64,000 nt of DNA from NCBI RefSeq assembly GCF_003334815.1, contig NZ_QOWO01000006.1; one strand, given 5' to 3'. The notes under the pieces are model-generated. The model worked only from the letters and a program-made list of their open reading frames with translations, did not search any database and was not told the DNA's origin. Shown here one piece after another: positions 2,208 to 64,000 of the stretch; the first letter of the stretch is position 1, and every line of letters starts with the position of its first letter. Made by a program: the position numbers and the translations under genes. The DNA is from Escherichia coli (lineage in GTDB: Bacteria > Pseudomonadota > Gammaproteobacteria > Enterobacterales > Enterobacteriaceae).

Positions 2208-4223
2208 ATGGCTGAACTGACTGCGCTTCACACATTAACAGCGCAAATGAAACGTGAAGGGATCCGCCGCTTGCTGGTGTTGAGCGGGGAAGAGGGTTGG
2301 TGTTTTGAGCATACTCTTAAGTTGCGTGATGCCTTACCTGGCGACTGGCTGTGGATTTCGCCGCGGCCAGATGCTGAAAACCACTGTTCTCCCTCGGCAC
2401 TACAAACTTTACTTGGGCGCGAGTTCCGGCATGCGGTATTCGACGCCCGCCACGGCTTTGATGCCGCTGCCTTTGCCGCACTTAGCGGAACGTTGAAAGC
2501 GGGAAGCTGGCTGGTTTTGTTACTCCCTGTATGGGAAGAGTGGGAAAACCAACCTGATGCCGACTCGCTGCGCTGGAGTGATTGCCCTGACCCTATTGCG
2601 ACGCCGCATTTTGTCCAGCATCTCAAACGCGTACTTACGGCGGATAACGAGGCTATCCTCTGGCGGCAAAACCAGCCATTCTCGTTGGCGCATTTTACTC
2701 CCCGTACTGACTGGTACCCCGCGACTGGCGCACCACAACCAGAACAACAGCAACTCTTAAAGCAGCTAATGACCATGCCGCCGGGCGTGGCAGCGGTAAC
2801 GGCTGCGCGTGGGCGCGGTAAGTCGGCGTTGGCAGGGCAACTCATTTCTCGTATTGCGGGCAGAGCGATTGTCACCGCGCCCGCAAAAGCGTCAACGGAT
2901 GTACTGGCACAATTTGCGGGCGAGAAGTTTCGCTTTATTGCGCCGGATGCCTTGTTAGCCAGCGATGAGCAAGCCGACTGGCTGGTGGTCGATGAAGCCG
3001 CAGCCATACCTGCGCCATTGTTGCATCAACTGGTATCGCGTTTTCCTCGAACGTTGTTAACCACTACGGTGCAGGGCTACGAAGGCACCGGACGTGGTTT
3101 TTTGCTGAAATTTTGCGCTCGCTTTCCGCATTTACACCGTTTTGAACTGCAACAGCCGATCCGCTGGGCGCAGGGATGCCCGCTGGAAAAAATGGTCAGC
3201 GAGGCACTGGTTTTTGACGATGAAAACTTCACCCATACACCACAAGGCAATATTGTCATTTCCGCATTTGAACAGACGTTATGGCAAAGCGATCCAGAAA
3301 CGCCGTTAAAGGTTTATCAGCTCTTGTCTGGTGCGCACTATCGGACTTCGCCGCTGGATTTACGCCGGATGATGGATGCACCAGGGCAACATTTTTTACA
3401 GGCGGCTGGCGAAAACGAGATTGCCGGGGCGCTGTGGCTGGTGGATGAGGGTGGATTATCTCAACAACTCAGTCAGGCGGTATGGGCAGGTTTTCGTCGC
3501 CCGCGGGGTAATCTGGTGGCCCAGTCGCTGGCGGCGCACGGCAACAATCCACTGGCGGCGACATTGCGTGGACGGCGGGTCAGCCGGATAGCAGTTCATC
3601 CGGCTCGTCAGCGGGAAGGCACAGGGCGGCAACTTATTGCTGGTGCTTTGCAATATACGCAAGACCTCGACTATCTTTCGGTGAGTTTTGGTTACACCGG
3701 GGAGTTATGGCGTTTCTGGCAACGCTGCGGTTTTGTGCTGGTGCGGATGGGTAATCATCGGGAAGCCAGCAGCGGTTGCTATACGGCGATGGCGCTGTTA
3801 CCGATGAGTGATGCGGGTAAACAGCTGGCTGAACGTGAGCATTACCGTTTACGTCGCGATGCGCAAGCTCTCGCGCAGTGGAATGGCGAAACGCTTCCTG
3901 TTGATCCACTAAACGATGCCGTCCTTTCTGACGACGACTGGCTTGAACTGGCCGGTTTTGCTTTCGCTCATCGTCCGCTATTAACGTCGTTAGGTTGCTT
4001 ATTGCGTCTGTTACAAACCAGTGAACTGGCATTACCGGCGCTGCGTGGGCGTTTACAGAAAAACGCCAGTGATGCGCAGTTATGTACCACACTTAAACTT
4101 TCAGGCCGCAAGATGTTACTGGTCCGTCAGCGGGAAGAGGCCGCGCAGGCGCTGTTCGCACTTAATGATGTTCGCACTGAGCGTCTGCGCGATCGCATAA
4201 CGCAATGGCAATTATTTCACTGA
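2208..4223 (+). CDS. tmcA: tRNA(Met) cytidine acetyltransferase (ac4C34 formation), helicase-like plus GNAT domains
   Basis: 671-aa ORF; Walker A-like GRGKSA; length and position match TmcA (YpfI). Confidence 0.9.
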   Translation: MAELTALHTLTAQMKREGIRRLLVLSGEEGWCFEHTLKLRDALPGDWLWISPRPDAENHCSPSALQTLLGREFRHAVFDARHGFDAAAFAALSGTLKAGSWLVLLLPVWEEWENQPDADSLRWSDCPDPIATPHFVQHLKRVLTADNEAILWRQNQPFSLAHFTPRTDWYPATGAPQPEQQQLLKQLMTMPPGVAAVTAARGRGKSALAGQLISRIAGRAIVTAPAKASTDVLAQFAGEKFRFIAPDALLASDEQADWLVVDEAAAIPAPLLHQLVSRFPRTLLTTTVQGYEGTGRGFLLKFCARFPHLHRFELQQPIRWAQGCPLEKMVSEALVFDDENFTHTPQGNIVISAFEQTLWQSDPETPLKVYQLLSGAHYRTSPLDLRRMMDAPGQHFLQAAGENEIAGALWLVDEGGLSQQLSQAVWAGFRRPRGNLVAQSLAAHGNNPLAATLRGRRVSRIAVHPARQREGTGRQLIAGALQYTQDLDYLSVSFGYTGELWRFWQRCGFVLVRMGNHREASSGCYTAMALLPMSDAGKQLAEREHYRLRRDAQALAQWNGETLPVDPLNDAVLSDDDWLELAGFAFAHRPLLTSLGCLLRLLQTSELALPALRGRLQKNASDAQLCTTLKLSGRKMLLVRQREEAAQALFALNDVRTERLRDRITQWQLFH

Positions 4224-5008: not shown

Positions 5009-5090
5009 TGGCCTGATAAGACGCGTGAGCGTCGCATCAGGCATCGTTCACCATTGCCGGATGCGGCGTTAACGCCTTATCCGGCCTACG
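5009..5090. repeat. BIME: two REP elements in inverted orientation between the convergent genes ypfH and ypfN
   Basis: GCCTGATAAGACGCGTGAGCGTCGCATCAGGC and GCCGGATGCGGCGTTAACGCCTTATCCGGCCTAC. Confidence 0.85.
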
Positions 5091-25615: not shown

Positions 25616-25909
25616 ATGGAAGCATTAGGAATGATCGAAACCCGGGGCCTGGTTGCACTGATTGAGGCTTCTGACGCGATGGTGAAAGCTGCGCGCGTCA
25701 AGCTGGTTGGTGTTAAGCAGATTGGCGGCGGCCTGTGTACTGCCATGGTTCGTGGTGATGTTGCAGCCTGTAAAGCCGCGACCGATGCAGGTGCCGCAGC
25801 GGCACAGCGTATCGGCGAGCTGGTATCTGTACACGTTATCCCGCGTCCGCACGGCGACCTGGAAGAAGTCTTCCCGATCGGCCTGAAAGGCGATAGCAGC
25901 AACCTGTAA
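25616..25909 (+). CDS. eutM: BMC-H shell protein EutM
   Basis: ORF track 25574..25909; start trimmed to [22 protein letters not shown]... (97 aa) behind AAAGAGGAAA. Confidence 0.9.
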
Positions 25910-25918
25910 TCACCCTGT

Positions 25919-25960
25919 GTGACGTCGATTCGGGCGTCACGCTCTCTCCTTTTTCATTTT
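25919..25960 (+). other. Stem-loop followed by a U-rich tract between eutM and eutN
   Basis: GTGACG-(10 nt)-CGTCAC, then CTCTCTCCTTTTTCATTTT. Confidence 0.4.
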
Positions 25961-26015
25961 ACCTTCTGCGGAGGGTAGGGGGAGCTTTTACCTGAAATAC
26001 GCCACGGAGGCGGGT

Positions 26016-26303
26016 ATGAAACTGGCAGTCGTCACTGGACAAATTGTTTGTACCGTACGCCATCACGGACTGGCGCATGACAAATTGCTGATGGTGGAAA
26101 TGATTGATCCACAAGGTAATCCTGACGGGCAATGCGCCGTCGCCATCGACAATATTGGCGCGGGAACCGGGGAGTGGGTGTTACTGGTGAGTGGCAGTTC
26201 CGCCCGCCAGGCGCATAAAAGCGAAACGTCACCGGTCGATCTGTGCGTGATTGGCATTGTCGATGAGGTGGTGTCTGGCGGTCAGGTAATTTTCCACAAA
26301 TAA
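26016..26303 (+). CDS. eutN: BMC vertex (pentamer) protein EutN
   Basis: 95-aa ORF MKLAVVTGQIVCTVRH... Confidence 0.9.
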   Translation: MKLAVVTGQIVCTVRHHGLAHDKLLMVEMIDPQGNPDGQCAVAIDNIGAGTGEWVLLVSGSSARQAHKSETSPVDLCVIGIVDEVVSGGQVIFHK

Positions 26304-26314
26304 GGCAGAACATC

Positions 26315-27718
26315 ATGAATCAACAGGATATTGAACAGGTGGTGAAAGCGGTACTGCTGAAAATGCAAAGCAGTGACACGCCGTCCGCCGCCGTTCATGA
26401 GATGGGCGTTTTCGCGTCCCTGGATGACGCCGTTGCGGCAGCCAAAGTCGCCCAGCAAGGGTTAAAAAGCGTGGCAATGCGCCAGTTAGCCATTGCTGCC
26501 ATTCGTGAAGCAGGCGAAAAACACGCCAGAGATTTAGCGGAACTTGCCGTCAGTGAAACCGGCATGGGGCGCGTTGAAGATAAATTTGCAAAAAACGTCG
26601 CTCAGGCGCGCGGCACACCAGGCGTTGAGTGCCTCTCTCCGCAAGTGCTGACTGGCGACAACGGCCTGACCCTAATTGAAAACGCACCCTGGGGCGTGGT
26701 GGCTTCGGTGACGCCTTCCACTAACCCGGCGGCAACCGTAATTAACAACGCCATCAGCCTGATTGCCGCGGGCAACAGCGTCATTTTTGCCCCGCATCCG
26801 GCGGCGAAAAAAGTCTCCCAGCGGGCGATTACGCTGCTCAACCAGGCGATTGTTGCCGCAGGTGGGCCGGAAAACTTACTGGTTACTGTGGCAAATCCGG
26901 ATATCGAAACCGCGCAACGCTTGTTCAAGTTTCCGGGTATCGGCCTGCTGGTGGTAACCGGCGGCGAAGCGGTAGTAGAAGCGGCGCGTAAACACACCAA
27001 TAAACGTCTGATTGCCGCAGGCGCTGGCAACCCGCCGGTAGTGGTGGATGAAACCGCCGACCTCGCCCGTGCCGCTCAGTCCATCGTCAAAGGCGCTTCT
27101 TTCGATAACAACATCATTTGTGCCGACGAAAAGGTACTGATTGTTGTTGATAGCGTAGCCGATGAACTGATGCGTCTGATGGAAGGCCAGCACGCGGTGA
27201 AACTGACCGCAGAACAGGCGCAGCAGCTGCAACCGGTGTTGCTGAAAAATATCGACGAGCGCGGAAAAGGCACCGTCAGCCGTGACTGGGTTGGTCGCGA
27301 CGCAGGCAAAATCGCGGCGGCAATCGGCCTTAAAGTTCCGCAAGAAACGCGCCTGCTGTTTGTGGAAACCACCGCAGAACATCCGTTTGCCGTGACTGAA
27401 CTGATGATGCCGGTGTTGCCCGTCGTGCGCGTCGCCAACGTGGCGGATGCCATTGCGCTAGCGGTGAAACTGGAAGGCGGTTGCCACCACACGGCGGCAA
27501 TGCACTCGCGCAACATCGAAAACATGAACCAGATGGCGAATGCTATTGATACCAGCATTTTCGTTAAGAACGGACCGTGCATTGCCGGGCTGGGGCTGGG
27601 CGGGGAAGGCTGGACCACCATGACCATCACCACGCCAACCGGTGAAGGGGTAACCAGCGCGCGTACGTTTGTCCGTCTGCGTCGCTGTGTATTAGTCGAT
27701 GCGTTTCGCATTGTTTAA
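26315..27718 (+). CDS. eutE: CoA-acylating acetaldehyde dehydrogenase
   Basis: 467-aa ORF, aldehyde dehydrogenase family. Confidence 0.92.
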   Translation: MNQQDIEQVVKAVLLKMQSSDTPSAAVHEMGVFASLDDAVAAAKVAQQGLKSVAMRQLAIAAIREAGEKHARDLAELAVSETGMGRVEDKFAKNVAQARGTPGVECLSPQVLTGDNGLTLIENAPWGVVASVTPSTNPAATVINNAISLIAAGNSVIFAPHPAAKKVSQRAITLLNQAIVAAGGPENLLVTVANPDIETAQRLFKFPGIGLLVVTGGEAVVEAARKHTNKRLIAAGAGNPPVVVDETADLARAAQSIVKGASFDNNIICADEKVLIVVDSVADELMRLMEGQHAVKLTAEQAQQLQPVLLKNIDERGKGTVSRDWVGRDAGKIAAAIGLKVPQETRLLFVETTAEHPFAVTELMMPVLPVVRVANVADAIALAVKLEGGCHHTAAMHSRNIENMNQMANAIDTSIFVKNGPCIAGLGLGGEGWTTMTITTPTGEGVTSARTFVRLRRCVLVDAFRIV

Positions 27719-27728
27719 GGAGTAACAG

Positions 27729-28565
27729 ATGGCGCACGACGAACAATGGCTCACCCCACGTCTGCAAACGGCGGCAACGCTGTGTAACCAGACGCCCGCC
27801 GCGACGGAATCTCCGCTGTGGCTGGGGGTGGATCTGGGCACCTGCGATGTGGTGTCGATGGTTGTCGACCGCGACGGTCAGCCAGTGGCGGTATGCCTCG
27901 ACTGGGCCGATGTGGTTCGCGACGGCATCGTCTGGGATTTCTTCGGCGCTGTCACCATTGTTCGTCGCCATCTCGACACGCTCGAGCAGCAATTCGGTCG
28001 TCGTTTTAGCCATGCGGCGACTTCATTTCCTCCAGGTACGGACCCGCGTATTTCCATCAACGTGCTGGAATCTGCCGGACTGGAAGTGAGCCATGTGCTG
28101 GATGAGCCAACCGCAGTTGCGGATCTGCTGCAACTGGACAACGCCGGTGTAGTGGATATCGGCGGCGGCACTACCGGCATTGCCATCGTGAAAAAGGGCA
28201 AGGTGACGTACTCGGCGGATGAAGCCACCGGCGGACATCACATCTCTCTGACTCTCGCCGGAAATCGCCGTATTTCGCTGGAAGAGGCGGAGCAGTACAA
28301 GCGCGGTCACGGTGAAGAGATTTGGCCTGCGGTGAAACCGGTGTACGAAAAAATGGCGGACATTGTCGCCCGGCATATTGAAGGGCAGGGCATTACTGAT
28401 TTATGGCTGGCGGGCGGCTCTTGTATGCAACCGGGCGTGGCGGAACTGTTTCGCAAACAATTCCCGGCGTTACAGGTGCATTTACCGCAGCACAGTTTGT
28501 TTATGACCCCGCTGGCGATCGCCAGTAGTGGGCGAGAGAAAGCGGAGGGGCTATATGCAAAATGA
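27729..28565 (+). CDS. eutJ: EutJ chaperone-like protein (actin/Hsp70 fold)
   Basis: 278-aa ORF. Confidence 0.9.
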   Translation: MAHDEQWLTPRLQTAATLCNQTPAATESPLWLGVDLGTCDVVSMVVDRDGQPVAVCLDWADVVRDGIVWDFFGAVTIVRRHLDTLEQQFGRRFSHAATSFPPGTDPRISINVLESAGLEVSHVLDEPTAVADLLQLDNAGVVDIGGGTTGIAIVKKGKVTYSADEATGGHHISLTLAGNRRISLEEAEQYKRGHGEEIWPAVKPVYEKMADIVARHIEGQGITDLWLAGGSCMQPGVAELFRKQFPALQVHLPQHSLFMTPLAIASSGREKAEGLYAK

Positions 28566-29742
28566 ATTGCAGACCGCGCTCTTTCAGGCGTTCGATACCC
28601 TGAATCTGCAACGGGTAAAAACATTTAGCGTTCCACCGGTGACGCTTTGCGGTCCGGGCTCGGTGAGCAGTTGCGGACAGCAAGCGCAAACGCGTGGGCT
28701 GAAACATCTGTTCGTGATGGCAGACAGCTTTTTGCATCAGGCAGGGATGACCGCCGGGCTGACGCGTAGCCTGACCGTTAAAGGTATCGCCATGACGCTC
28801 TGGCCATGTCCGGTGGGCGAACCGTGCATTACCGACGTGTGTGCAGCCGTGGCGCAGTTGCGTGAGTCAGGCTGTGATGGGGTGATCGCGTTTGGCGGCG
28901 GCTCGGTGCTGGATGCGGCGAAAGCCGTGACGTTGCTGGTGACGAACCCGGATAGCACGCTGGCAGAGATGTCAGAAACCAGCGTTCTGCAACCGCGCTT
29001 GCCGCTGATTGCCATTCCAACTACCGCAGGAACCGGCTCTGAAACCACCAATGTAACGGTGATTATCGACGCGGTGAGCGGGCGCAAGCAGGTGTTAGCC
29101 CATGCCTCGCTGATGCCGGATGTGGCGATCCTCGACGCCGCATTGACCGAAGGTGTGCCGTCGCATGTCACGGCGATGACCGGCATTGATGCGTTAACCC
29201 ATGCCATTGAAGCATACAGCGCCCTGAACGCTACACCGTTTACCGACAGTCTGGCGATTGGTGCCATTGCGATGATTGGCAAATCGCTGCCGAAAGCGGT
29301 GGGCTACGGTCACGACCTTGCCGCGCGCGAGAGCATGTTGCTGGCTTCATGTATGGCGGGAATGGCGTTTTCCAGTGCGGGTCTTGGGTTGTGCCACGCG
29401 ATGGCGCATCAGCCGGGCGCGGCGCTGCATATTCCGCACGGTCTCGCGAACGCCATGTTGCTGCCAACGGTGATGGAATTTAACCGGATGGTTTGTCGTG
29501 AACGCTTTAGTCAGATTGGTCGGGCACTGCGAACTAAAAAATCCGACGATCGTGACGCTATTAACGCGGTAAGTGAGCTGATTGCGGAAGTTGGGATTGG
29601 TAAACGACTGGGCGATGTTGGTGCGACATCTGCGCATTACGGCGCATGGGCGCAGGCCGCGCTGGAAGATATTTGTCTGCGCAGTAACCCGCGTACCGCC
29701 AGCCTGGAGCAGATTGTCGGCCTGTACGCAGCGGCGCAATAA
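28555..29742 (+). CDS. eutG: Iron-containing alcohol dehydrogenase EutG
   Basis: ORF track 28528..29742; start trimmed to MQNELQTALFQAFD... (395 aa); overlaps the eutJ stop by 11 nt. Confidence 0.9.
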   Translation: MQNELQTALFQAFDTLNLQRVKTFSVPPVTLCGPGSVSSCGQQAQTRGLKHLFVMADSFLHQAGMTAGLTRSLTVKGIAMTLWPCPVGEPCITDVCAAVAQLRESGCDGVIAFGGGSVLDAAKAVTLLVTNPDSTLAEMSETSVLQPRLPLIAIPTTAGTGSETTNVTVIIDAVSGRKQVLAHASLMPDVAILDAALTEGVPSHVTAMTGIDALTHAIEAYSALNATPFTDSLAIGAIAMIGKSLPKAVGYGHDLAARESMLLASCMAGMAFSSAGLGLCHAMAHQPGAALHIPHGLANAMLLPTVMEFNRMVCRERFSQIGRALRTKKSDDRDAINAVSELIAEVGIGKRLGDVGATSAHYGAWAQAALEDICLRSNPRTASLEQIVGLYAAAQ

Positions 29743-29744
29743 AT

Positions 29745-29930
<186 letters not shown>

Positions 29931-29958
29931 AAATAACAACTAACAGGGAGTAAAGGCG

Positions 29959-31185
29959 ATGGGAATTAACGAAATCATCATGTACATCATGATGTTCTTT
30001 ATGCTGATAGCTGCCGTAGACAGGATCCTGTCGCAGTTCGGCGGTTCTGCTCGTTTCCTCGGTAAGTTCGGTAAAAGTATCGAAGGATCAGGCGGTCAGT
30101 TCGAAGAAGGCTTTATGGCAATGGGCGCACTGGGCCTGGCGATGGTCGGTATGACCGCGCTGGCACCGGTACTGGCTCACGTTCTCGGGCCGGTAATTAT
30201 TCCGGTTTACGAAATGCTCGGCGCTAACCCATCGATGTTCGCCGGAACACTGCTGGCGTGCGATATGGGCGGCTTCTTCCTCGCCAAAGAGCTGGCGGGC
30301 GGCGACGTAGCCGCGTGGCTATACTCTGGGTTAATTCTCGGGTCGATGATGGGGCCAACGATTGTGTTTTCCATTCCGGTGGCGCTCGGCATTATCGAAC
30401 CTTCTGACCGTCGTTATCTGGCGCTCGGCGTGCTGGCGGGCATTGTGACCATTCCGATTGGTTGTATCGCTGGTGGTCTGGTTGCTATGTACTCCGGTGT
30501 GCAGATCAACGGCCAGCCGGTGGAATTCACTTTCGCCCTGATCCTGATGAACATGATCCCGGTGATCATTGTTGCGATTCTGGTGGCGCTGGGGCTGAAA
30601 TTCATCCCGGAAAAAATGATCAACGGCTTCCAGATCTTCGCCAAATTCCTCGTTGCATTGATCACCCTCGGTCTTGCCGCTGCGGTAGTGAAATTCCTGC
30701 TTGGCTGGGAACTGATCCCCGGTCTGGATCCTATCTTTATGGCCCCTGGCGATAAACCCGGTGAGGTGATGCGCGCCATTGAAGTTATCGGTTCTATCTC
30801 CTGCGTTCTGTTAGGGGCGTATCCGATGGTGCTGCTGCTGACTCGCTGGTTTGAAAAACCGCTGATGAGCGTCGGTAAAGTACTGAATATGAACAACATC
30901 GCGGCAGCCGGCATGGTGGCAACGCTTGCCAACAACATCCCGATGTTCGGCATGATGAAGCAGATGGATACCCGCGGCAAAGTCATCAACTGCGCCTTCG
31001 CCGTTTCCGCTGCTTTCGCCCTGGGCGACCACTTAGGCTTCGCCGCTGCCAACATGAACGCCATGATCTTCCCGATGATTGTCGGCAAGTTGATCGGCGG
31101 CGTAACGGCGATTGGCGTGGCGATGATGCTGGTGCCAAAAGAAGACGCGACCGCGACTAAAACCGAAGCGGAGGCACAATCGTGA
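29959..31185 (+). CDS. eutH: Ethanolamine permease EutH
   Basis: 408-aa polytopic membrane ORF. Confidence 0.92.
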   Translation: MGINEIIMYIMMFFMLIAAVDRILSQFGGSARFLGKFGKSIEGSGGQFEEGFMAMGALGLAMVGMTALAPVLAHVLGPVIIPVYEMLGANPSMFAGTLLACDMGGFFLAKELAGGDVAAWLYSGLILGSMMGPTIVFSIPVALGIIEPSDRRYLALGVLAGIVTIPIGCIAGGLVAMYSGVQINGQPVEFTFALILMNMIPVIIVAILVALGLKFIPEKMINGFQIFAKFLVALITLGLAAAVVKFLLGWELIPGLDPIFMAPGDKPGEVMRAIEVIGSISCVLLGAYPMVLLLTRWFEKPLMSVGKVLNMNNIAAAGMVATLANNIPMFGMMKQMDTRGKVINCAFAVSAAFALGDHLGFAAANMNAMIFPMIVGKLIGGVTAIGVAMMLVPKEDATATKTEAEAQS

Positions 31186-32585
31186 ACACTCGCCAGCTAT
31201 TGAGCGTCGGTATCGATATCGGCACCACCACCACCCAGGTGATTTTCTCCCGGCTGGAGCTGGTTAACCGTGCGGCGGTGTCGCAGGTGCCGCGCTACGA
31301 ATTCATTAAACGCGAAATTAGCTGGCAAAGTCCGGTGTTCTTTACCCCTGTCGATAAACAGGGCGGTTTAAAAGAAGCGGAACTGAAAACCTTAATACTC
31401 GAGCAATATCATGCTGCGGGTATTGAGCCGGAAAGCGTTGATTCTGGTGCCATCATCATCACCGGTGAAAGCGCGAAAACCCGCAATGCTCGCCCGGCGG
31501 TGATGGCGCTCTCTCAGTCGCTGGGCGATTTTGTCGTTGCCAGCGCCGGGCCGCACCTCGAATCCGTGATCGCCGGTCACGGAGCCGGGGCACAAACCCT
31601 TTCTGAACAACGGCTGTGTCGGGTACTGAATATCGACATCGGCGGTGGCACCGCGAACTACGCCCTGTTCGATGCCGGAAAAATCAGCGGCACTGCCTGC
31701 CTCAACGTCGGTGGTCGCCTGCTGGAAACCGACAGCCACGGGCGCGTGGTTTACGCTCATAAACCGGGGCAGATGATTGTGGATGAGTGCTTCGGTGCAG
31801 GCACCGACGCCCGTTCGCTGACCGGCGCGCAGCTGGTGCAGGTGACCCGGCGGATGGCAGAACTGATTGTCGAAGTGATTGACGGAACGCTCTCACCGCT
31901 CGCGCAGGCATTGATGCAAACCGGTTTGCTGCCCGCAGGTGTTACGCCCGAAATCATTACGCTTTCTGGCGGCGTGGGCGAATGTTATCGCCACCAGCCC
32001 GCCGACCCGTTCTGTTTTGCCGATATTGGCCCGCTGCTGGCAACTGCGCTGCATGACCATCCGCGCCTGCGTGAGATGAACGTACAGTTTCCGGCGCAAA
32101 CCGTGCGCGCCACGGTGATTGGCGCGGGCGCGCATACCCTTTCGCTCTCTGGCAGCACAATCTGGCTTGAGGGCGTACAACTGCCGCTGCGCAATTTGCC
32201 GGTGGCGATCCCGATTGATGAAACGGATCTGGTGGGGGCCTGGCAACAGGCGCTGATTCAGCTGGATCTTGATCCCAAAACTGACGCGTACGTGCTGGCG
32301 CTTCCCGCCTCGCTGCCTGTGCGTTACGCCGCGGTACTGACGGTCATCAACGCGTTGGTCGATTTCGTCGCGCGTTTTCCGAATCCGCATCCCCTGCTGG
32401 TGGTGGCCGGGCAGGACTTTGGTAAAGCTCTGGGCATGTTGTTGCGCCCACAGCTACAACAACTCCCGTTGGCAGTCATTGACGAAGTGATTGTCCGCGC
32501 GGGGGACTATATCGACATTGGTACGCCTCTTTTTGGCGGATCGGTTGTGCCGGTGACGGTGAAATCACTCGCATTTCCTTCCTGA
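31182..32585 (+). CDS. eutA: Ethanolamine ammonia-lyase reactivating factor
   Basis: 467-aa ORF; ATGA overlap with eutH. Confidence 0.92.
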   Translation: MNTRQLLSVGIDIGTTTTQVIFSRLELVNRAAVSQVPRYEFIKREISWQSPVFFTPVDKQGGLKEAELKTLILEQYHAAGIEPESVDSGAIIITGESAKTRNARPAVMALSQSLGDFVVASAGPHLESVIAGHGAGAQTLSEQRLCRVLNIDIGGGTANYALFDAGKISGTACLNVGGRLLETDSHGRVVYAHKPGQMIVDECFGAGTDARSLTGAQLVQVTRRMAELIVEVIDGTLSPLAQALMQTGLLPAGVTPEIITLSGGVGECYRHQPADPFCFADIGPLLATALHDHPRLREMNVQFPAQTVRATVIGAGAHTLSLSGSTIWLEGVQLPLRNLPVAIPIDETDLVGAWQQALIQLDLDPKTDAYVLALPASLPVRYAAVLTVINALVDFVARFPNPHPLLVVAGQDFGKALGMLLRPQLQQLPLAVIDEVIVRAGDYIDIGTPLFGGSVVPVTVKSLAFPS

Positions 32586-36093: not shown

Positions 36094-37146
36094 ATGAAAA
36101 AGACCCGTACAGCCAATTTGCACCATCTTTATCATGAACCCTTACCCGAAAACCTGAAGCTCACGCCGAAGGTCGAAGTGGATAATGTTCATCAACGACA
36201 GACAACGGATGTCTATGAACATGCTTTAACGATTACCGCCTGGCAGCAGATTTACGATCAGCTGCATCCGGGCAAGTTTCATGGTGAATTTACGGAAATT
36301 CTACTCGATGATATTCAGGTTTTTCGTGAATACACCGGTCTGGCGCTGCGTCAGTCGTGCCTGGTCTGGCCGAACTCGTTCTGGTTTGGCATTCCGGCGA
36401 CGCGCGGTGAGCAGGGATTTATCGGTTCGCAATGTCTGGGAAGCGCGGAAATCGCCACCCGCCCTGGTGGCACTGAATTTGAACTGAGCACGCCGGATGA
36501 TTACACGATCCTGGGCGTGGTGCTTTCTGAAGATGTCATCACCCGGCAGGCTAACTTTTTGCATAACCCGGATCGGGTATTACATATGTTGCGTAACCAG
36601 TCGGCGCTGGAAGTGAAAGAGCAGCATAAAGCCGCGCTGTGGGGCTTTGTCCAACAGGCGCTGGCGACGTTTTGCGAGAATCCGGAAAATCTCCATCAGC
36701 CTGCAGTGCGAAAAGTGCTGGGGGATAATTTGCTAATGGCGATGGGGGCCATGCTGGAAGAAGCGCAACCAATGGTGACGGCGGAAAGCATCAGTCATCA
36801 GAGTTACCGTCGATTGCTTTCCCGCGCCCGTGAATATGTGCTGGAAAACATGTCCGAACCGGTGACGGTGCTGGATTTGTGTAATCAACTGCATGTCAGC
36901 CGCCGCACGCTACAAAACGCGTTTCACGCTATTTTAGGCATTGGCCCGAACGCGTGGCTGAAACGCATTCGCCTGAACGCCGTACGCCGCGAACTGATAA
37001 GTCCGTGGTCGCAAAGTATGACGGTAAAAGACGCCGCCATGCAGTGGGGATTCTGGCATCTGGGGCAATTTGCCACGGATTACCAGCAGCTGTTTTCCGA
37101 GAAGCCGTCACTGACGCTGCATCAGCGGATGCGGGAGTGGGGGTGA
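36094..37146 (+). CDS. eutR: AraC-family transcriptional activator of the eut operon
   Basis: 350-aa ORF; last gene of the operon. Confidence 0.92.
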
Positions 37147-37151
37147 GGGAG

Positions 37152-38054
<903 letters not shown>

Positions 38055-52643: not shown

Positions 52644-52741
<98 letters not shown>

Positions 52742-61090: not shown

Positions 61091-63115
<2,025 letters not shown>

Positions 63116-63116
63116 G

Positions 63117-63335
63117 ATGGAAAAAGAGCAGCTGATTGAAATAGCCAATACGATAATGCCGTTTGGCAAATACAAAGGGCGTCGCTTAATCGACCTGCCG
63201 GAGGAGTATCTGCTGTGGTTTGCCCGCAAAGATGAGTTCCCGGCAGGGAAGCTCGGTGAGCTAATGCAAATCACGCTGCTGATTAAAACCGAGGGGCTGA
63301 CGCAACTGGTCCAGCCCCTGAAGCGTCCGCTTTAA
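63117..63335 (+). CDS. ypeB: Small protein YpeB (DUF3820)
   Basis: ORF track 63024..63335; start trimmed to ATG 63117 (MEKEQLIEIANTIMPFGKYKGRRL..., 72 aa), 1 nt after the ligA stop. Confidence 0.8.
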   Translation: MEKEQLIEIANTIMPFGKYKGRRLIDLPEEYLLWFARKDEFPAGKLGELMQITLLIKTEGLTQLVQPLKRPL

Positions 63336-64000
63336 GCTTTATCGGCGCTGCTTTCCTGCTGCGCCTGTAACTGTTCGGTCTGGCGTTTGTATCGACGCGC
63401 CAGCACCGCACAGACCATCAATTGGATCTGATGGAAAATCATCAGGGGCAGCACCATCATACCGATCACCGATGTGGGGAACAGAATGTTTGCCATCGGG
63501 ATGCCATTTGCCAGACTCTTTTTCGAACCACAAAAGACGATAGTAATTTCATCTGCCTTATTGAAGCTCAGTCGGCGTGCCATAAAGACGTTAACTACAA
63601 TCACGATAGCCAGAAGAACGCAGCTGACCACCACGATAAACAGCAATGATCCCCAGCCAACTTTATGCCAGATACCATTAACGACGGCTTCGCTGAACGC
63701 TGTATAAACCACCAACAGAATGGACGTCTGGTCAGTTTTCGCAATCCATTTTTTATTGCGCGACACCCAGTCACCAATCCACGGCCGGGAAAGATGCCCC
63801 AACACAAACGGCAGCAGCAGTTGCAGCATAATTTTACCGACCTGCTCAAGGCTGCCCCCTGCACCGTGAACATTCATCACCAGACCAACCAGCAATGGTG
63901 AAAGGAAAATCCCCAGCAGGCTGGATGCCGACGCAGAACAAACCGCTGCCGCGACGTTACCGCCCGCCATTGACGTGAAGGCGATTGCAGACTGCACGGT
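63332..64000 (-). CDS. yfeH: Bile acid:sodium symporter-family transporter YfeH, C-terminal part; 5' end lies beyond the window
   Basis: ORF track 63332..63997 is open to the window edge; polytopic membrane protein; its stop codon overlaps the ypeB stop. Confidence 0.8.
   Translation of the reverse strand, partial: TVQSAIAFTSMAGGNVAAAVCSASASSLLGIFLSPLLVGLVMNVHGAGGSLEQVGKIMLQLLLPFVLGHLSRPWIGDWVSRNKKWIAKTDQTSILLVVYTAFSEAVVNGIWHKVGWGSLLFIVVVSCVLLAIVIVVNVFMARRLSFNKADEITIVFCGSKKSLANGIPMANILFPTSVIGMMVLPLMIFHQIQLMVCAVLARRYKRQTEQLQAQQESSADKA

Follow-up and report, generated by a model that had tools for sequence, protein, structure and literature searches.

A conserved hairpin inside ypeB as a candidate transcript-end signal for the convergent gene yfeH, and published Rho-dependent ends at two tight gene junctions of Escherichia coli

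On balance, we favour the reading that the two tightest convergent gene junctions in the DNA studied here, ypeB/yfeH and eutR/hemF, are ordinary tail-to-tail gene ends, and that the end signal of yfeH is embedded in the coding sequence of its partner ypeB, with Rho as a backstop further downstream. The stretch of Escherichia coli DNA that was analysed, hereafter the window, is 64,000 nucleotides long and is the reverse complement of MG1655 at approximately 2.527-2.591 Mb, so that a window position equals 2591276 minus the position in NC_000913.3. At 100% identity the region matches E. coli K-12-type chromosomes, and it is carried by 5426 out of 5426 complete E. coli genomes. The window has eight convergent junctions, and apart from the two treated here they have gaps of 22-239 bp. 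The features at the ypeB/yfeH junction are the following.

61100..63115, plus strand: ligA coding sequence, on the strand of ypeB and upstream of it at a distance of 1 nt, with the stop codon TGA at 63113-63115
63117..63335, plus strand: ypeB coding sequence, 72 amino acids (DUF3820/PF12843), ATG at 63117 and TAA at 63333-63335; conserved in 80 loci
63332..64000, minus strand: 3' part of the yfeH coding sequence (bile acid:Na+ symporter family), which continues beyond the window end
63332..63335: TTAA, the 4-bp overlap of the ypeB and yfeH coding sequences, with both stop codons (YTAR class)

An initial annotation of this DNA had reported that the stop codons of ypeB and yfeH overlap, and this is right: the coding sequences overlap by 4 bp and the two stop codons have 2 nt in common, 63333-63334. 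The stop codon TAA of yfeH is the reverse complement of TTA at 63332-63334, both in the list of open reading frames and by direct reading, and the RefSeq annotation of identical E. coli records contains the same 4-bp overlap. Only the letters given for the shared sequence, TTTAA, were wrong by one base too many, and the correct sequence is TTAA.

The arrangement, though uncommon, is one of a class that is recognised. Lillo & Krakauer (2007, PMC2174442) counted 58 convergent overlaps in E. coli, and attributed a jump in the number of overlaps of length 4 to tetramers, namely CTAA, TTAA, CTAG and TTAG; among convergent overlaps, the 4-bp YTAR type is the published modal class. With coding sequences on opposite strands, an overlap of exactly 4 bp and a tetramer, TTAA, that holds both stop codons, ypeB/yfeH is a member of it. 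The same authors predicted a rho-independent terminator inside the coding sequence of the partner for 23 of the 116 genes that take part in the convergent overlaps of E. coli, and a terminator placed in the sequence of a convergent partner is a known solution.

For a comparison among relatives, species-representative genomes with YpeB were collected in one scan, which gave 80 loci, and the tblastn matches of YpeB, YfeH and LigA were extended to their stop codons. In 73 of the 80 loci ligA-ypeB is convergent with yfeH. The overlap is exactly 4 bp in 57 of these, three have a gap of 2 bp and the other 13 have gaps of 6-165 bp. The genera with the 4-bp overlap include Escherichia, Salmonella, Citrobacter, Enterobacter, Klebsiella, Raoultella, Kluyvera and Kosakonia, and also Lelliottia, Leclercia, Pluralibacter, Yokenella, Trabulsiella, Franconibacter and Cedecea, among others. 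The overlap is old and common to the Enterobacteriaceae. It is also self-preserving, because a change at either of the shared middle bases destroys at least one stop codon, and the only changes that should be tolerated are pyrimidine to pyrimidine at position 1 and purine to purine at position 4; all four allowed forms are seen at the 57 overlapping junctions (TTAA 36, TTAG 11, CTAA 6 and CTAG 4). We considered the persistence of the 4-bp overlap as evidence of function and rejected it, since the shared middle bases are a mutational trap in which most substitutions extend one or both of the proteins. In-frame indels that lie upstream of the tetramer explain why YpeB varies in length, with 70, 71 or 72 amino acids.

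It had also been claimed that the overlap leaves no room for a terminator, and this is misleading, because a conserved hairpin with a U tract, to which we ascribe a putative terminator role, lies on the yfeH strand inside the coding sequence of ypeB. Its parts are as follows.

63292..63319, minus strand: hairpin, read in the yfeH sense as 5'-AGGGGCUG (63319..63312), a loop of 12 nt, and CAGCCCCU-3' (63299..63292)
63285..63288, minus strand: UUUU tract, 3 nt (C-N-G) past the hairpin, the reverse complement of AAAA in ypeB codons 57-58

The hairpin starts 12 nt past the TAA of yfeH and occupies ypeB codons 59-68. Read along the yfeH strand, the sequence past the stop codon is thus AGGGGCUG...CAGCCCCU followed by CGGUUUUAAU, and the whole element, 63319..63285, is antisense to ypeB codons 56-68 and sits in RNA that is untranslated, downstream of the yfeH stop codon. 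The stem has 8 bp, six of them G-C pairs, and a minimum free energy (MFE) of -16.3 kcal/mol in E. coli. As a folding energy this is unremarkable, with z = -1.9 for 45 nt and z = -0.26 in a context of 86 nt. A consensus scan for promoters and terminators called no terminator at the ypeB/yfeH junction, and it missed the hairpin on the yfeH strand because the loop is 12 nt. At gathering score, Rfam 15 had no family at either junction and only naRNA4 and ES036 elsewhere in the window. The possibility that the hairpin is a repeat element was rejected, as its sequence is unique in the window.

The case for the hairpin comes from its relatives. We took as ingroup the 61 sequences with the 4-bp overlap or the 2-bp gap, the window included, and the hairpin is kept in all 61, with an MFE over 48 nt of -11 to -23 kcal/mol. 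Neither the 13 loci whose gaps are at least 6 bp nor most of the seven loci without an adjacent yfeH preserve it (MFE -3 to -15 over both groups), and one outgroup locus (L056) has a version of it at -16.9; the contrast between ingroup and outgroup corresponds to essentially one clade, and the association of overlap and hairpin is for that reason close to a single evolutionary event. RNAalifold recovers the helix, with 97% of its cells paired. Little or no variation is seen in the six pairs that ypeB codons 60-61 form with 66-67, and as most pairs of the stem never vary they show constraint and not covariation. Where the stem does change, compensatory forms are found, GGGGTTG/CAACCCC in one locus (L036) and AAGGG/CCCTT in two others (L037 and L048), and in three more (L072, L075 and L078) the stem is re-built in ways that involve amino-acid changes. 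The pair at the base of the stem, between position 3 of codon 59 and position 1 of codon 68, is G-C in 46 sequences, G-U in 12 and A-U in two. It is therefore intact in 60 of 61 sequences on the minus strand and in only 49 of 61 on the plus strand, where the G-U pair becomes A.C, and this asymmetry is a strand-specific signature in favour of RNA of the yfeH sense.

Synonymous sites are constrained as well. The gene ypeB has 49 conserved degenerate codons, and the lowest codon entropy falls on exactly the five that make up the stem and the U tract: Gly60 is GGG in 61/61, Pro67 is CCC in 61/61, Leu61 is CTG in 60/61, Lys57 is AAA in 59/60, which makes it the most constrained lysine codon of the gene, and Gln66 is CAG in 55/56. 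Neither GGG nor CCC is preferred at the other glycine and proline positions of ypeB, and those vary freely, with entropies of 0.7-1.7 bits. The U tract itself, UUUU, is found in 56 of the 61 ingroup sequences, but it is only 4 long, lies 3 nt off the stem and is uncalled by the consensus scan. What keeps the hairpin in place are rare codons that never vary (GGG and CCC), together with substitutions that are compensatory or lead to G-U pairs.

Where a spacer separates ypeB from yfeH, relatives carry a canonical terminator in the intergenic region and lack the hairpin of the ingroup. In the Pantoea-like loci, with gaps of 30-31 bp, a perfect bidirectional terminator, CAAAACGGCCCGC-loop-GCGGGCCGUUUU, takes up the entire spacer, and in the loci of the Rahnella group, with gaps of 51-68 bp, the spacer contains AAAAAGGCGCUGA...UCAGCGCCUUU. 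Erwinia, with a gap of 6-7 bp, has a hairpin CGGGGCC...GGCCCCG that extends over the final codons of ypeB and its stop codon and is followed on the yfeH strand by UUUC or UUUU, a half-embedded, intermediate state. Hafnia paralvei and Photorhabdus have no adjacent yfeH, and canonical terminators past ypeB. The relatives can be arranged as a natural series, from an intergenic bidirectional terminator (Pantoea-like and Rahnella-group loci) over a partly embedded one (Erwinia) to the fully embedded hairpin of the Enterobacteriaceae.

Published data place ends of transcripts further on, inside the opposing genes. Adams et al. (2021, PMC7815308, supplementary file 2) determined regions of Rho termination by DirectRNA-seq with and without bicyclomycin (BCM), and two of them map to the junctions studied here; their resolution is coarse, as they are windows of 800 nt.

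62125..62925, minus strand: Rho region of the yfeH-strand transcript, antisense to ligA, with its peak at 62525, which is MG1655 2528751(+) (PMC7815308)
36236..37036, minus strand: Rho region of the hemF-strand transcript, antisense to eutR, with its peak at 36636, which is MG1655 2554640(+) (PMC7815308)

By coordinate mapping, the first peak is about 0.8 kb past the yfeH stop codon and the second about 0.5 kb past that of hemF. The reads upstream and downstream of 2528751(+) are 55/6 without bicyclomycin and 113/83 with it (p 1e-6), and those of 2554640(+) are 78/18 and 102/106 (p 9e-8; both PMC7815308). Downstream of both stop codons the untranslated RNA is C-rich and G-poor, as Rho requires; for yfeH, windows that start 157-274 nt beyond the stop codon have C/G ratios of 1.75-2.25, against a background across the whole window whose median is 1.0 and whose 95th percentile is 1.73. 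The initial annotation had predicted that transcripts at both junctions end inside the opposing gene, and the Rho regions bear this out. It had also named, as the result that would speak against it, 3' ends that lie upstream of the partner gene; the published Rho ends lie inside the partner, which is the reverse of that result, and an overlap of yfeH and ypeB transcripts has been listed. ExcludonFinder (PMC12288877, Table 1) has yfeH-ypeB among the 165 convergent excludons that are present in at least 50% of 58 MG1655 RNA-seq sets, and eutR-hemF is absent from that list. In 146 of these 165 convergent excludons, terminators predicted by TransTermHP lie inside the neighbour's transcription unit (PMC12288877).

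Since the Rho region is 0.8 kb downstream, at least part of the transcription of the yfeH strand passes the hairpin. The Term-seq tables of Adams 2021 have no entry for ypeB, yfeH or hemF and no coordinates near the junctions (including MG1655 ~2527991(+)), the TERMITe 2025 tables have no entry for yfeH or ypeB, and a literature search on yfeH found nothing on a yfeH terminator. The missing Term-seq end is weak evidence against a terminator, as it comes from a curated list and could reflect low expression or coverage of yfeH, though it lends the terminator no support either.

From its anatomy, its conservation and the selection on its synonymous sites we infer that the hairpin terminates the transcription of yfeH. 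As there is no spacer available, the termination signal of yfeH would have been written into the partner gene. In RNA transcribed from yfeH the element belongs to the untranslated 3' UTR, where the hairpin can fold, and in the ligA-ypeB mRNA the same bases are translated (codons 59-68), so that ribosomes would keep them melted. The hairpin would then end the yfeH RNA, or pause and protect it, about 45-50 nt into ypeB, which would give a 3' UTR of the same length. The signal is non-canonical, with a spacer of 3 nt and only four U, and would probably be leaky; such a weak terminator fits both the absent Term-seq peak and the Rho backstop inside ligA. The yfeH RNA that reads through is untranslated and C-rich and, by the published data, is halted by Rho several hundred nucleotides on, antisense to ligA. 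Whether ypeB codons 56-68 are truly dual-coding, specifying residues of YpeB and at the same time a selected transcript-end signal for yfeH on the opposite strand, is a question on which we judge both answers about equally probable.

The consensus scan found no plus-strand terminator for ligA-ypeB up to the window end. Just past ypeB (63320-63420) the plus strand folds strongly (z = -4.0), and it contains one weak candidate hairpin.

63344..63365, plus strand: weak hairpin GGCGC (63344-63348)...GCGCC (63361-63365), just past the ypeB stop codon and antisense to the yfeH tail

This helix is moderately conserved, with 83-85% of its cells paired, and has no conserved U tract, and judged by its sequence it is not convincing as a terminator of ligA-ypeB. 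The main helix of the strong fold, CTGGCG (63380-63385) with CGCCAG (63398-63403), was rejected in the same role, as it is specific to E. coli and less well conserved than the smaller one, with 80% of its cells paired and one of its pairs formed in only 27 of 58. With no recognisable intrinsic terminator, the ligA-ypeB transcript presumably has to run antisense into yfeH, which is the likely basis of the yfeH-ypeB excludon call.

Other explanations of the hairpin have to be weighed against a terminator. It could be a protective stem-loop at the 3' end, where Rho ends the yfeH transcripts diffusely in ligA, 3'-to-5' exonucleases trim them back and the stem-loop sets and stabilises the mature end. 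Trimming of Rho-terminated RNA to a stem-loop is a model reportedly put forward by Dar and Sorek. In Dar & Sorek (2018, PMC6061677), intrinsic termination, which is precise, is set against the Rho-dependent kind, which is diffuse. The Rho-dependent region downstream of the hairpin agrees with such trimming, and so does the U tract, which is short and detached from the stem and would make a poor intrinsic terminator. However, exonuclease blocking needs no U tract, and the conservation of UUUU (AAA at codon 57 in 59/60) counts mildly against it; nor is there a mapped 3' end at the hairpin in the tables of Adams 2021 or TERMITe 2025, and we regard this explanation as rather unlikely. It is less probable still, and in our opinion quite improbable, that there is no functional termination signal at all, so that the convergent polymerases collide and the outcome is interference and cleavage by RNase III, as in an excludon, with the hairpin conserved for, say, the structure or translation of the ypeB mRNA. 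The listing of yfeH-ypeB as a convergent excludon (PMC12288877), the failure of the scan to find a canonical terminator at the junction and the Rho termination deep inside the partner gene are all in line with this, but the asymmetry between G-U and A.C favours RNA of the yfeH sense over the ypeB mRNA, the U tract is under selection, and the taxa with a spacer lack the hairpin and have a canonical intergenic terminator in its place.

The least probable explanation, to which we give very little credence, is an overlapping bidirectional terminator of the kind described by Ju et al. (2019) and Wang et al. (2022), where a stem-loop pauses both polymerases and head-on and trailing collisions release them. 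That model requires a stem-loop in the region common to both convergent transcripts (10.1101/2022.10.23.513370), and the ypeB hairpin is located in such a region, but on the plus strand it lies inside a translated open reading frame and stops 13 nt short of the stop codon of ypeB, so that a 3' end there would leave a non-stop ypeB mRNA; moreover, there is no U tract on the plus side, and 12 of the 61 sequences have an A.C mismatch on that strand. Judged from the sequence, a shared stem-loop flanked by both 3' ends, which defines the collision type, is not what is found here. The most rational explanation is in our view still a yfeH terminator of modest strength inside ypeB, with Rho behind it.

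The second junction is a different case. Here the initial annotation gave 5 bp between the stop codons, and this agrees with our reading of the sequence and with the arrangement in RefSeq.

36094..37146, plus strand: eutR coding sequence, 350 amino acids, stop codon TGA at 37144-37146
37147..37151: GGGAG, the 5-bp spacer between eutR and hemF
37152..38051, minus strand: hemF coding sequence, 299 amino acids, downstream of amiA; its stop codon TAA is the reverse complement of 37152-37154
37127..37151, minus strand: C-rich, G-poor tract CUCCCUCACCCCCACUCCCGCAUCC, directly past the hemF stop codon, a candidate Rho loading site

The eutR/hemF junction shows no sign of an embedded conserved signal. 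The first 78-nt window past the hemF stop codon has a C/G ratio of 1.67, and the consensus scan gave only a weak, terminator-like hairpin of 5 bp at 36635..36621, close to where the Rho peak in eutR was published. Transcripts of hemF run onto the C-rich tail and, by the published data, Rho halts them some 0.5 kb into eutR, which accounts for the termination of hemF. The junction sequence is present in 5395 of 5426 E. coli genomes at a coverage of at least 80%. We located the EutR homologues of other genera on their contigs and compared the flanks; the eutR stop codon is at the homologous position in all the compared loci (...RQW[V/A/G]*), and the sequence downstream of it differs.

Klebsiella pneumoniae (L092): hemF, after a spacer of 43 bp that contains a REP-like palindrome
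Citrobacter freundii (L090): hemF, after a spacer of 122 bp that contains REP/BIME-like units
L087, with 88% EutR identity: hemF, after a spacer of 189 bp that contains four copies of a palindromic unit of about 42 bp
Salmonella (L086): a gene other than hemF, after a spacer of 199 bp
Yokenella (L091) and L088: eutR adjoined by other genes

The Klebsiella spacer begins with bases that match the GGGAG of E. coli, and the gap in E. coli is 5 bp because it holds only GGGAG and no palindromic repeats. We therefore rejected the 5-bp gap as a conserved design: since the spacers of relatives differ, with REP-like repeats in some of them (Klebsiella, C. freundii and L087), the tight spacing is a lineage-specific empty site, and the spacer is an "empty" one specific to Escherichia.

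If the dual-coding interpretation of ypeB is correct, the choice between synonymous codons (GGG60, CCC67 and AAA57) would have been fixed for about as long as the Enterobacteriaceae have existed, so as to terminate a convergent neighbour, and the embedded signal would limit antisense transcription into the essential gene ligA. Recoding or codon-optimising ypeB could then unintentionally release such transcription. A lesson is that absent intergenic space does not imply an absent terminator. The overlap, the class of stop codons and the overlap of yfeH and ypeB transcripts are already annotated or published, and the conserved yfeH hairpin embedded in coding sequence is apparently the undescribed part, as we could not find a description of it. 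The added value is modest, a clean and testable case of synonymous-site selection for the signal of a gene on the opposite strand.

Compared with known systems, the ypeB/yfeH junction is of the same kind as the 4-bp convergent overlaps of Lillo & Krakauer (2007, PMC2174442), with opposite-strand stop codons in one tetramer, and what it adds to that class is the depth of conservation (57 species and all four tetramers) and the evidence of selection on an embedded signal. Like intrinsic terminators, the yfeH-strand element has a GC-rich stem and then a U run in untranslated RNA shortly past a stop codon, and canonical intrinsic terminators hold the equivalent position in the Pantoea-like, Rahnella-group and Erwinia loci; unlike them, it has a loop of 12 nt, a 3-nt spacer and four U, lies wholly inside the coding sequence of the opposite strand, and has no yfeH 3' end in the tables of Adams 2021 and TERMITe 2025. 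Among the convergent excludons (PMC12288877), yfeH-ypeB is itself part of the MG1655 excludome, where the pair was not singled out and its transcript ends were not placed, and it differs from other excludons in that the overlap goes beyond the 3' UTR and reaches coding sequence. REP/BIME repeats fill the eutR-hemF spacers of Klebsiella, C. freundii and L087, whereas E. coli is without any. The bicyclomycin-sensitive readthrough antisense to ligA and eutR, finally, is like the Rho-dependent termination of other untranslated and antisense RNA, and we noted no difference from it.

In three Erwinia loci (L071, L076 and L083) a terminator hairpin of the form CGGGGCC-NNNN-GGCCCCG is found around locus positions 2705..2740. 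The ypeB of these loci is longer (75 aa), its final codons and its stop overlap with the hairpin, and the gap from ypeB to yfeH is 6-7 bp. Judged by sequence, this arrangement looks like a step between an intergenic terminator and one that is fully embedded. In Siccibacter turicensis (L056) the convergent partner of ypeB is not yfeH, but a different ORF of 114 aa, and around 2714..2722 there is a gap of 0 between the TGA of ypeB and the TCA that is the stop of this ORF. The hairpin conserved inside the codons of ypeB is retained there in a slightly imperfect form, and so is the TTTT tract.

At its other end, ypeB follows closely on ligA:

63113..63119, + strand: ligA stop TGA (63113-15) and ypeB start ATG (63117), 1 nt between them

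This stop-to-start distance suggests that the two genes may be translationally coupled. The aligned first codon of ypeB is translated as Val in 36 of the 81 orthologues, which indicates a GTG start.

The other convergent pair, eutR and hemF, has a much longer spacer in a relative with 88% EutR identity (L087), where positions 2554-2742 consist of four copies of a palindromic unit of about 42 bp, CCCCTCACCCCGGCCCTCTCCCGTGGGGAGAGGGAGATGTGT. The E. coli junction, GGGGGTGAGGGAGTTACACCC, is similar to the edge of the last of these units, and a comparison of the sequences is compatible with an array that was lost from, or is absent in, Escherichia at this junction. Within eutR there is a further element:

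36621..36635, - strand: weak terminator-like hairpin, GCGGCTTTATGCTGC then TCTTTCACTT, antisense to eutR

It lies at the same place as a published Rho-score peak antisense to eutR (window 36636), which could be a coincidence, as the resolution of the Rho data is 800 nt. Rho termination regions have also been reported internal to ligA (MG1655 2529816, - strand) and, a strong one with a Rho score of 23, antisense to eutB (MG1655 2558053, + strand) (Adams et al. 2021, PMC7815308); by coordinate conversion they fall at window ~61460 (+) and ~33223 (-), respectively.

Elsewhere in the window, the following Rfam matches exceed the gathering score, the last of them just barely:

5010..5086, both strands: naRNA4 (RF02564)
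29797..29878, + strand: naRNA4 (RF02564)
52665..52707, - strand: ES036 (RF02751) sRNA, 40.9 against a gathering score of 37.6 bits

The eut operon is split between eutA and eutB by a block of genes running from intZ, a tyrosine recombinase/integrase at one end, through yffL-yffS (window ~25900..32420). This block is the CPZ-55 prophage of K-12, and it makes another close convergent junction, in which yffS faces a hypothetical ORF of 41 aa and eutA across a gap of 22 bp.
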